Positions 21,563-22,449 of a stretch of 46,697 nt of DNA are shown here, in pieces. Position 1 is the first letter of the stretch. Each line of letters begins with the position of its first letter. Source of the DNA: a virus (lineage: Duplodnaviria; Heunggongvirae; Uroviricota; Caudoviricetes); the IMG/VR virus record IMGVR_UViG_2534681933_000025. The stretch is one strand, 5' to 3'. Both the position numbers and the translations under genes were made by a program. The notes under the pieces are model-generated. The model did not search any database. It was not told the DNA's origin and saw only the letters and a program-made list of their open reading frames with translations.

Positions 21563-21590
21563 AAGAGGCACCGTAATGGTGCCTTTGTCA
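21563..21590 (+). terminator. Hairpin GAGGCACCGTAATGGTGCCTTTGTC after endolysin
   Basis: GGCACC-GTAAT-GGTGCC stem-loop followed by TTTGTCATTT. Confidence 0.45.
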
Positions 21591-21730
21591 TTTCTGCGCT
21601 TCGCACAAGCGTAAATAAACCAAAGAACCTTTCAGGATGAGCCCTGGTGGATAACCGGCAGTGGTCTGGTTAACCCTCTTTGGGCTGGTTATTCCTGTGC
21701 GCAGGGTTCATCACTAAAAGGAAATAACCG

Positions 21731-22300
21731 ATGAATATGATGACCGTGCCGTTTCACGGCGATTCTCTTTATGTGGTTAACCATAACGGCGAACCATACG
21801 TTCCCATGAAACCTGTCGTTGCGGGGATGGGGCTGGCCTGGCAATCACAGTTGGCTAAGTTAAGACAGCGTTTTGCGTCAACTATAACGGAAATCGTTAT
21901 GGTTGCTGAGGATGGGAAACGACGCAATATGGTGTCCCTGCCGCTTCGAAAACTTGCAGGCTGGTTACAAACCATCAATCCCAACAAAGTAAAACCCGAA
22001 ATCCGCGGCAAGGTAATCCAGTATCAGGAAGAGTGTGACGATGTTCTCTATGAATACTGGACGAAGGGTTTTGTCGTTAATCCCCGTCGAATGAGTGTGA
22101 TGGAAGAACTCAATCAGGCTTGCGCTGACATGAAACGGGATAAAAACATTGCCAGTGTGTTTGCTACCGGGCTGAATGAGTGGAAACAGGTTAAATCCGC
22201 GCATGTATCAAAAATCCGCACATTGATAAACGAAGCGAATCTGCTGATTGATTTTGTCCTGGCTGATACAGACAAAGGGAAAATAACAAAGGCGGATTGA
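21731..22300 (+). CDS. Phage antirepressor (AntA-like)
   Basis: 189 aa; N-terminal ...VPFHGDSLYVVNHNGEPYVPMKPVVAGMGLAWQSQLAKL... resembles antirepressor N-domains; inserted between endolysin and Rz. Confidence 0.55.
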   Translation: MNMMTVPFHGDSLYVVNHNGEPYVPMKPVVAGMGLAWQSQLAKLRQRFASTITEIVMVAEDGKRRNMVSLPLRKLAGWLQTINPNKVKPEIRGKVIQYQEECDDVLYEYWTKGFVVNPRRMSVMEELNQACADMKRDKNIASVFATGLNEWKQVKSAHVSKIRTLINEANLLIDFVLADTDKGKITKAD

Positions 22301-22449
22301 TGGAGTGGTGGCTAATGATATCGGATAAACTCATAACGCTGGCGAAGATCCTCTGTGTAATCGTCGGCATTTCATTTTTAGTCATGCTGGTTGCCATTTT
22401 CTTTTCCACCGCCTGGCGAGTCCTGACGTTATCGGGACTGGTGGGGTGA
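22300..22449 (+). CDS. Small membrane protein, hypothetical
   Basis: 49 aa MEWWLMISDKLITLAKILCVIVGISFLVMLVAIFFSTAWRVLTLSGLVG; ATGA overlap with ant stop and 7 nt before Rz start; below ORF-track cutoff. Confidence 0.4.
   Translation: MEWWLMISDKLITLAKILCVIVGISFLVMLVAIFFSTAWRVLTLSGLVG

Follow-up and report, generated by a model that had tools for sequence, protein, structure and literature searches.

The lysis cassette of phage 21 and lambda is composed of the S21 pinholin, the signal-anchor-release (SAR) endolysin R21 and the spanin pair Rz/Rz1, and in its canonical form R lies next to Rz or overlaps it, as in the Qin prophage of Escherichia coli K-12. Closer to the locus described here is the lysis region of the Stx2 phage 933W, whose record (AF125520) annotates S, R, ant ("possible regulation of host cell lysis"), Rz, Rz1 and bor and leaves a small open reading frame (ORF) between ant and Rz unannotated. 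We analysed the counterpart of this ORF in a stretch of viral DNA of 46,697 nucleotides (IMG/VR record IMGVR_UViG_2534681933_000025, the window), whose host element is a stx-negative, 933W-like lambdoid prophage with a Q-dependent late operon. The window contains the same Pfam families as the phage 21/lambda cassette in the same order, but about 1 kb of cargo separates R from Rz. Positions 21563-22449 are variable cargo in the late lysis operon, comprising a hairpin, a structured leader, an Ant-like gene and the small gene. Gene order is shared with 933W and with other Stx and Stx-like prophages, and the identity to 933W is 99% for S, 97% for R, 94% for Ant and 93% for the small ORF; the Rz allele of the window is only 56% identical to that of 933W, no bor follows it, and the N-terminal extension of the small protein reads MEWWL instead of MGWL. 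The first-pass annotation of this stretch had described a lysis cassette in which non-canonical genes split R from Rz; this holds, and its coordinates were correct.

We found that the small ORF (22300-22449, + strand; 49 amino acids from the ATG at 22300, stop codon TGA at 22447-22449) is a genuine conserved membrane-protein gene under purifying selection, that it is independent of ant, and that it is the last gene of a variable cargo located behind the endolysin gene. The protein matched phrog_4906 with an E-value of 1.4e-33, residues 1-49 aligning to positions 1-49 of the 49-position profile. Homologues fell into 62 protein clusters, the intact members of which share a core of 43-44 residues with no insertions or deletions. 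The ratio of nonsynonymous to synonymous polymorphism (pN/pS), pooled over 15 distinct alleles, was 0.39 in frame versus 0.86 and 1.18 in the other two frames, and the ratio of the corresponding substitution rates (dN/dS) was 0.12-0.5 for divergent pairs, the Salmonella homologue included. That homologue is about 57% identical, as counted from the two sequences, and from E. coli to Salmonella the protein keeps its length, its hydrophobic helix and its SGL(V/L)G end. Nucleotide diversity was 0.09 in the 5′ half of the ORF versus 0.17 in the 3′ half. Frame conservation among homologous cassettes had been named at the outset as the point on which the ORF depends, and the frame is kept in every intact homologous cassette examined. 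The earlier view that the small protein lies outside the holin-endolysin-spanin set also holds, and the conservation and the phrog_4906 match mark it as the product of a real membrane-protein gene.

Through alignment between contexts, homology was found to begin at the start codon of the core and to end at the stop codon. The small ORF is therefore a self-contained mosaic module, since its own start and stop codons bound the homology. Other degraded elements carry frameshifted copies of the gene, and in locus L098, a decayed prophage with an adjacent IS66 element, the allele at 3001-3132 showed a dN/dS of about 2 against its closest relative. In the same locus a tail-tip gene is called over the end of Rz, and the allele fits relaxed constraint. 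As for expression, the homologue in strain Sakai, XECs191, is listed as a translated ORF and had in LB a mean of 30.0 reads per kilobase per million (RPKM) in the transcriptome and 12.6 in the translatome with a footprint coverage of 0.55, and its signals were weaker in BHI than in LB (PMC5597208).

Three in-frame starts are present in the window, TTG at 22297 (50 amino acids), ATG at 22300 (49 amino acids) and ATG at 22315 (44 amino acids, MISDKL...), the last preceded by GGAG 9 nt upstream. The ATG at 22300 overlaps the ant stop as TGATG, with one base shared (A at 22300), and not by the four-nucleotide ATGA described at first. The 44-residue core from 22315, MISDKLITLAKILCVIVGISFLVMLVAIFFSTAWRVLTLSGLVG, is the counterpart of the protein in all other contexts. 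In contexts without ant the core begins at ATG (MSDKL...) with GGGAGG or AAGGGG before it; in the ant contexts this codon is ATA and the ATG is shifted one codon upstream, in the window to 22315. Translation from 22300 and translation from 22315 are both possible.

The length of a 49-codon ORF is not significant by itself, as the window contains 132 ORFs of 40-80 amino acids that begin with ATG. Only two of them are of membrane grade, defined by a 19-residue Kyte-Doolittle (KD) mean of at least 2.5, and these are the small ORF and the Hok toxin gene. The latter, of the Hok/Gef type, is located at 12695-12907 on the + strand (PF01848, E-value 1.2e-23 for the 51-residue form that starts with MKQQK at 12755). 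The transmembrane prediction suggested in the first-pass annotation returned one hydrophobic helix: the small protein contains a single very hydrophobic segment, ILCVIVGISFLVMLVAIFF (KD 3.14), and AlphaFold2 modelled one continuous helix over residues 2-39 with a mean pLDDT of 90. The segment is flanked by two lysines on its N-terminal side and by at most one arginine on its C-terminal side, so that an N-in/C-out orientation is weakly favoured. The protein is probably located in the inner membrane with a cytoplasmic N-terminus and a tail of about 14 residues outside.

The comparison with related lysis cassettes that had been proposed for this locus showed the small ORF to be kept across several upstream contexts. 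The initially implied pairing with this particular antirepressor was not supported, for the ORF also follows an Ant protein of the PF03374 family, a 60-residue ORF, or a 31-residue ORF without any Ant. In the Stx1a phage PV02105 it comes after an unrelated ANT protein (PF03374, phrog_63) and a 31-residue membrane ORF (phrog_6632). In phages PhiR12_4 and PhiR12_2_star and in sampled non-O157 E. coli genomes it comes after a 60-residue membrane ORF (phrog_1115), and in phage 705R7 it stands among four small membrane ORFs in tandem. In a Salmonella prophage it follows a phrog_6632-like ORF alone, and its stop codon overlaps the Rz start. Among the sampled contexts the holin is 80-100%, the lysozyme R 90-100% and Rz 51-100% identical.

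The small ORF was always found downstream of an endolysin gene in the individually examined loci, and three endolysin types precede it: a SAR lysozyme of glycoside hydrolase family 24 (GH24), a GH108 enzyme and an M15 peptidase. Where Rz exists the ORF lies directly before it, separated by 3-11 nt or overlapping it by the 4 nt GTGA or ATGA, with phage 705R7 and locus L087 as exceptions. The gap of 7 nt in the window, from the stop codon to the Rz start at 22457, was correctly given in the earlier annotation. The ORF also occurs in cassettes of the phiP27 type, where the holins differ, the endolysin is a GH108 or M15 enzyme and no Rz comes after it. The homologues there are about 65-80% identical (3001-3135 in L096 and L097, 2501-2635 in L103), and the cassettes carry Phage_holin_8, Phage_holin_3_7 and the GH108 or M15 endolysin, with no Rz called. 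In L096 the next gene is a 51-residue ORF with a lipobox-like LVGC motif, collinear with L32 of phiP27.

The C-terminal third of the small protein exists in two types, which matched the two N-terminal types of Rz in 83 of 83 and 6 of 6 members of the sample. This co-segregation is most simply explained by physical linkage, with co-adaptation as an alternative.

Other single-helix ORFs are located between R and Rz of related prophages, including phrog_1115/4493 (60 residues), phrog_6632 (31 residues) and a 28-residue ORF. They were seen at 1822-2004 in L003, at 734-824, 961-1077 and 1089-1175 in L006, at 1903-1998 in L007 and at 2403-2498 in L102, and up to four small single-helix ORFs stand in tandem. 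Some of them resemble each other, with z-scores of 5.5 for phrog_1115 against the 28-residue ORF and 4.6 for phrog_1115 against phrog_6632.

The gene is abundant. The 2.35-kb lysis region matched 460 phage records, mostly of Shiga toxin (Stx)-converting phages, many of them at 99.5-99.7% identity over the first 87-88% of the query, and the small ORF was present in 276 phage records. A 171-nt query spanning the ORF matched 1235 of 5426 complete E. coli genomes (23%) at 3330 places, with a median of 2 and a maximum of 9 places per genome.

The taxonomic range is narrow. All named sources of the protein clusters are E. coli, the phage matches are phages of E. coli and Shigella, and one Salmonella record holds the gene. 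Of 185,579 species-representative genomes a single one gave a match, through a 328-bp contig of a Xanthomonas pisi assembly (NZ_JPLE01000251.1, locus L089). This contig agrees with the E. coli small ORF at 100% identity, also includes the end of ant and most likely contaminates the assembly. When 1.84 billion representatives were searched exhaustively with a profile, 28 proteins emerged, every one a close relative or a fragment, and a word-indexed search likewise returned close relatives and fragments only. The family is narrow and without detectable distant relatives.

The ORF had been placed below the usual annotation cutoffs in the first-pass annotation, whereas in fact it is annotated in phage records, by the NCBI Prokaryotic Genome Annotation Pipeline (PGAP) and in strain EDL933. 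Newer phage records such as PQ600365 call it a hypothetical protein, and so does PGAP in E. coli RefSeq genomes; in EDL933 it is locus EDL933_1392, an annotated protein that served as a control in PMC4765031 and was predicted there to lie in the inner membrane. Ant was counted in 126 of 279 Stx phages by Pinto et al., the consulted portions of which make no mention of the small ORF (PMC8136144). Among papers on ant in Stx lysis cassettes we found none that discusses the small ORF, and a full-text literature search with the peptide sequence returned nothing. Public annotation and two published enterohaemorrhagic E. coli (EHEC) datasets already contain the gene and its arrangement, and the arrangement has been public since the 933W record. 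Added here are the independence from ant, the position behind the endolysin gene across cassette types and the absence of detectable distant relatives.

Our best guess on function, drawn from position, is that the small protein is a late-made, non-essential inner-membrane accessory of lysis, and we give this reading a probability of roughly 35-40%. It is suggested because the gene keeps a constant position behind the endolysin gene and directly before Rz where Rz is present. It is plausible that the gene is expressed late, along with the lysis genes. Q is encoded upstream of the cassette on the same strand, and a scan of both strands of 20000-23600 found no promoter-like sites, versus 3.7 expected by chance. 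Since no promoter-like site is nearby and a terminator-like hairpin lies upstream, we infer that antiterminated polymerase transcribes the gene with the lysis genes. Ribosomes could enter the small ORF by re-initiating at the ant stop (TGATG), but are more likely to start at 22315, where the ORF has a GGAG-N9-ATG of its own; on finishing it they would be released 7 nt before the Rz start. The protein could adjust holin triggering, the energisation of the membrane or the action of the spanins, and would not be a partner of Ant. As three endolysin types precede it and it occurs in cassettes without Rz, dependence on a SAR endolysin, a pinholin or Rz is excluded. A precedent exists in gp25 of phage Mu, the "releasin", an extra membrane protein that controls endolysin release (PMC9239132).

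Several observations weigh against a role in lysis. Pfam, NCBIfam and PADLOC gave the small protein no meaningful match, and remote homology gave no function. The K-12 Qin cassette does without the gene, rrrQ and rzpQ overlapping by 4 nt there, and subtraction leaves 184 of the 460 phage records matching the lysis region without it. The gene moves about with Ant genes and other mobile cargo and occurs in the phiP27-type cassettes that have no Rz, and its co-segregation with Rz types is most simply physical linkage. The footprints of XECs191 are weak, and they were recorded without induction in a strain that has several near-identical copies.

The main rival, which we regard as somewhat unlikely, is that the gene is a moron unrelated to lysis, expressed late or in the lysogen and serving for example superinfection exclusion at the inner membrane, defence or the modulation of host membrane proteins, at a junction that merely tolerates cargo. 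The R-Rz junction is indeed a cargo hotspot, which houses small membrane ORFs from at least three families (phrog_4906, phrog_6632 and phrog_1115/4493) as well as Ant genes from two families unrelated to each other, and the small gene moves between unrelated cassette types along with the Ant cargo. Its frequency (23% of complete E. coli genomes, up to 9 places per genome) and the uninduced state of the cultures that gave the XECs191 footprints point the same way. Those weak footprints could also stem from spontaneously induced cells, PADLOC returned no matches, and autonomous expression in the lysogen is unsupported, because neither strand of 20000-23600 has a promoter-like site and the terminator-like hairpin stands upstream of the cargo and not downstream. 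If, on the other hand, the ORF were a translated spacer that restores R-Rz coupling and Rz/Rz1 synthesis, or a linker for DNA recombination, the peptide itself would have little function. This fits the uninterrupted, coupled state in Qin, where R and Rz overlap by 4 nt, the short distance of 7 nt before the Rz ATG in the window, the overlap of the TGA with the GTG or ATG of Rz in other alleles, and the lower diversity of the 5′ half of the ORF (0.09 versus 0.17). It is nevertheless improbable, since selection acts at the amino-acid level (pN/pS 0.39 in frame and about 1 off frame, dN/dS 0.12-0.5), the helix, length and SGL(V/L)G end persist at about 57% identity between E. coli and Salmonella, and the gene is also found where no Rz follows.

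A functional pair with the Ant-like regulator, the small protein acting for instance as a membrane anchor or antagonist of Ant, is more improbable again. The TGATG overlap permits coupled translation, and the ORF comes after an Ant-type gene in three kinds of context (P22_AR_N Ant once, PF03374 ANT in two cassette types); but no relationship links the two Ant families, the ORF is present without Ant in many E. coli prophages and in one Salmonella prophage, and homology begins at the ORF's own start codon and not within ant. That the ORF arose by chance in conserved non-coding DNA between ant and Rz is hardly credible and was already disfavoured. The 132 ORFs of similar length in the window, the lack of annotation in the original 933W record and the weak footprint signal could be read in that direction, against which stand the frame-specific purifying selection, the constant length across 62 clusters and two genera, the module boundaries at the start and stop codons, and the finding that only 2 of the 132 comparable ORFs have a membrane-grade helix.

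Some specific identities were also considered. A named small protein of K-12 Qin was rejected, as rrrQ and rzpQ overlap there. An i-spanin was rejected because only about 14 residues follow the helix and no long periplasmic coiled-coil is present. With regard to a possible origin by duplication of the 5′ end of Rz, the similarity between the small protein and the transmembrane domain of Rz is weak (z 2.4-3.9 against whole-sequence shuffles) and inseparable from hydrophobic composition. The idea of a releasin or antipinholin was downgraded, as the gene also stands behind GH108 and M15 endolysins with unrelated holins. The small protein has two traits of holins and antiholins, one predicted transmembrane helix and a location in the lysis cassette; no known holin family was matched in Pfam (E-value at most 0.01), and no NCBIfam match rose above noise. 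With respect to type I toxins, no promoter-like site was found on either strand near the small ORF and no Rfam match in the region.

We might speculate further that the 44-residue protein represents a novel class of small membrane effectors whose genes are placed behind those of endolysins; the class might also include phrog_6632 and phrog_1115/4493 and would set lysis timing or envelope disruption independently of the type of holin, endolysin or spanin. We consider this doubtful. If it were true, the class would affect when toxin and virions leave the cell in Stx phages, whose lysis genes control cell burst and hence the release of both. About one in four complete E. coli genomes carries the small gene within the lysis operon, and several copies per genome are frequent. 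Should the small protein change lysis timing, a component would be added to a pathway usually deemed complete with holin, endolysin and spanin; should it do nothing, the R-Rz junction would simply be a cargo hotspot.

The rest of the cargo consists of the Ant-like gene and the structures before it. The Ant-like gene (21731-22300, + strand, 189 amino acids) had been called AntA-like, and Pfam assigns it instead to PF10547 (P22_AR_N, E-value 8.5e-45) and PF10549 (ORF11CD3, E-value 2.6e-6); the scan (E-value at most 0.01) found no AntA/AntB model and no C-terminal domain of P22 Ant. It matched phrog_524 with an E-value of 3e-112 over profile positions 7-210 of 317 and is shorter than typical members, and a sequence search against solved structures gave a spurious match only. 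The protein is a member of the P22_AR_N family with putative antirepressor activity.

Upstream of it, a structured leader (21628-21721, + strand) is closed by a 17-bp basal helix in which CCUUU (21628-21632) pairs with AAAGG (21717-21721), the latter being part of the ant ribosome-binding site. The leader forms a long hairpin, and the fold of a 191-nt stretch has -68.3 kcal/mol (z -4.6). An alignment fold of nine variants gave 26 pairs with 100% of cells paired and 3 pairs changed on both sides, a covariation that comes from only two or three lineages. About 100 nt of the leader are kept before two unrelated ant genes and in the phiP27-type cassette. These features suggest that ant translation is controlled by sequestration of the ribosome-binding site in the leader.

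The terminator-like hairpin at 21564-21586 (+ strand, from a consensus scan) is composed of 10 pairs, 5 of them G-C, followed by the T-rich tail TTTGTCATTTCTG, and folds with -17.4 kcal/mol (z -3.2). A hairpin is always found behind the endolysin gene, in three unrelated sequence versions (21564-21586 in the window, about 1745-1790 in L003 and about 2052-2080 in L096); as these occupy the same position, the structure was kept while the sequence was replaced. An Rfam scan of 19900-23700 found nothing in the ant leader or the hairpin. The approximately 105 nt 3′ of R (21457-21560, + strand) are kept in every context examined, and the alignment shows cargo variation starting beyond them.

Toward the 5′ side of the operon, the Q antiterminator gene (16115-16789, + strand, PF06323) is followed downstream by three tRNA genes (Met-CAT, Arg-TCG and Arg-TCT, 17271-17520) and a NanS-p type esterase gene (18051-19997, + strand). 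Only about 530 nt separate the tRNA cluster from the esterase gene, and no + strand ORF of at least 80 amino acids starts between them, from which stxAB is inferred to be missing. A DUF1378 ORF lies at 20134-20313 (+ strand). On the - strand, 19997-20074 matched the Rfam model of Esr41, a small RNA of EHEC, weakly (29.6 bits versus a gathering score of 102, E-value 0.0086, full model length), perhaps as a diverged relative and perhaps by chance.

The first gene of the cassette encodes an S21-type (class II) holin, presumed to be a pinholin (20703-20918, + strand, PF04971, E-value 9e-33). The antiholin form of the phage 21 holin begins with MKSM and has a lysine in its extension. The window holin starts with MYQMEK (20703-20714), and compared with MKSM its dual-start extension would be without positive charge, so antiholin control may differ. 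The lysozyme R follows (20923-21456, + strand, PF00959, E-value 3.4e-24), whose N-terminus MSRKLRYGLSAAVLALIAAGASAP is typical of a SAR domain; R of 933W is a listed SAR endolysin (PMC9239132). Beyond the cargo, the inner-membrane spanin subunit Rz is encoded at 22457-22924 (+ strand, PF03245, E-value 6.2e-29), and inside it, in another frame, the outer-membrane lipoprotein subunit Rz1 at 22677-22883 (+ strand, PF06085, E-value 8.8e-21), whose translation shows the lipobox-like IMVAGC. A second terminator-like hairpin (23098-23117, + strand, consensus scan) lies downstream of Rz, with 8 pairs, 6 of them G-C, followed by the T tract TTTTTATT. Downstream of Rz, where 933W has bor on the opposite strand, a 95-residue ORF is found (23143-23430, + strand). 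It matches only positions 139-230 of the 233-position profile phrog_3527 and for this reason may be a truncated gene.

Compared with known systems, the cassette has a P21-family class II holin, a SAR-type lysozyme and Rz with embedded Rz1, as expected of the S21/R21/Rz-Rz1 arrangement. The Ant-like protein shares the N-terminal P22_AR_N domain with P22 Ant and differs from it in having ORF11CD3 and no detected P22_AR_C; its gene is located in the late lysis operon, whereas P22 ant lies in the immunity region with Mnt and Arc. The small protein is a full-length member of phrog_4906, a PHROGs family without assigned function, and shows no difference from it. Mu gp25 has 99 residues, an N-out/C-in topology and a cytoplasmic domain of 73 residues, whereas the protein of the window is a bare 44-residue helix that lacks both a soluble domain and sequence similarity to gp25; it has no Pfam match to DUF2730, the releasin family, and also occurs with non-SAR endolysins. 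LysA of P2, whose gene is located between K and lysB, has several membrane segments where the window protein has one helix. What the small protein has in common with Mu gp25 and P2 LysA is that all three are membrane proteins encoded near endolysin or spanin genes and are themselves neither holin, endolysin nor spanin.

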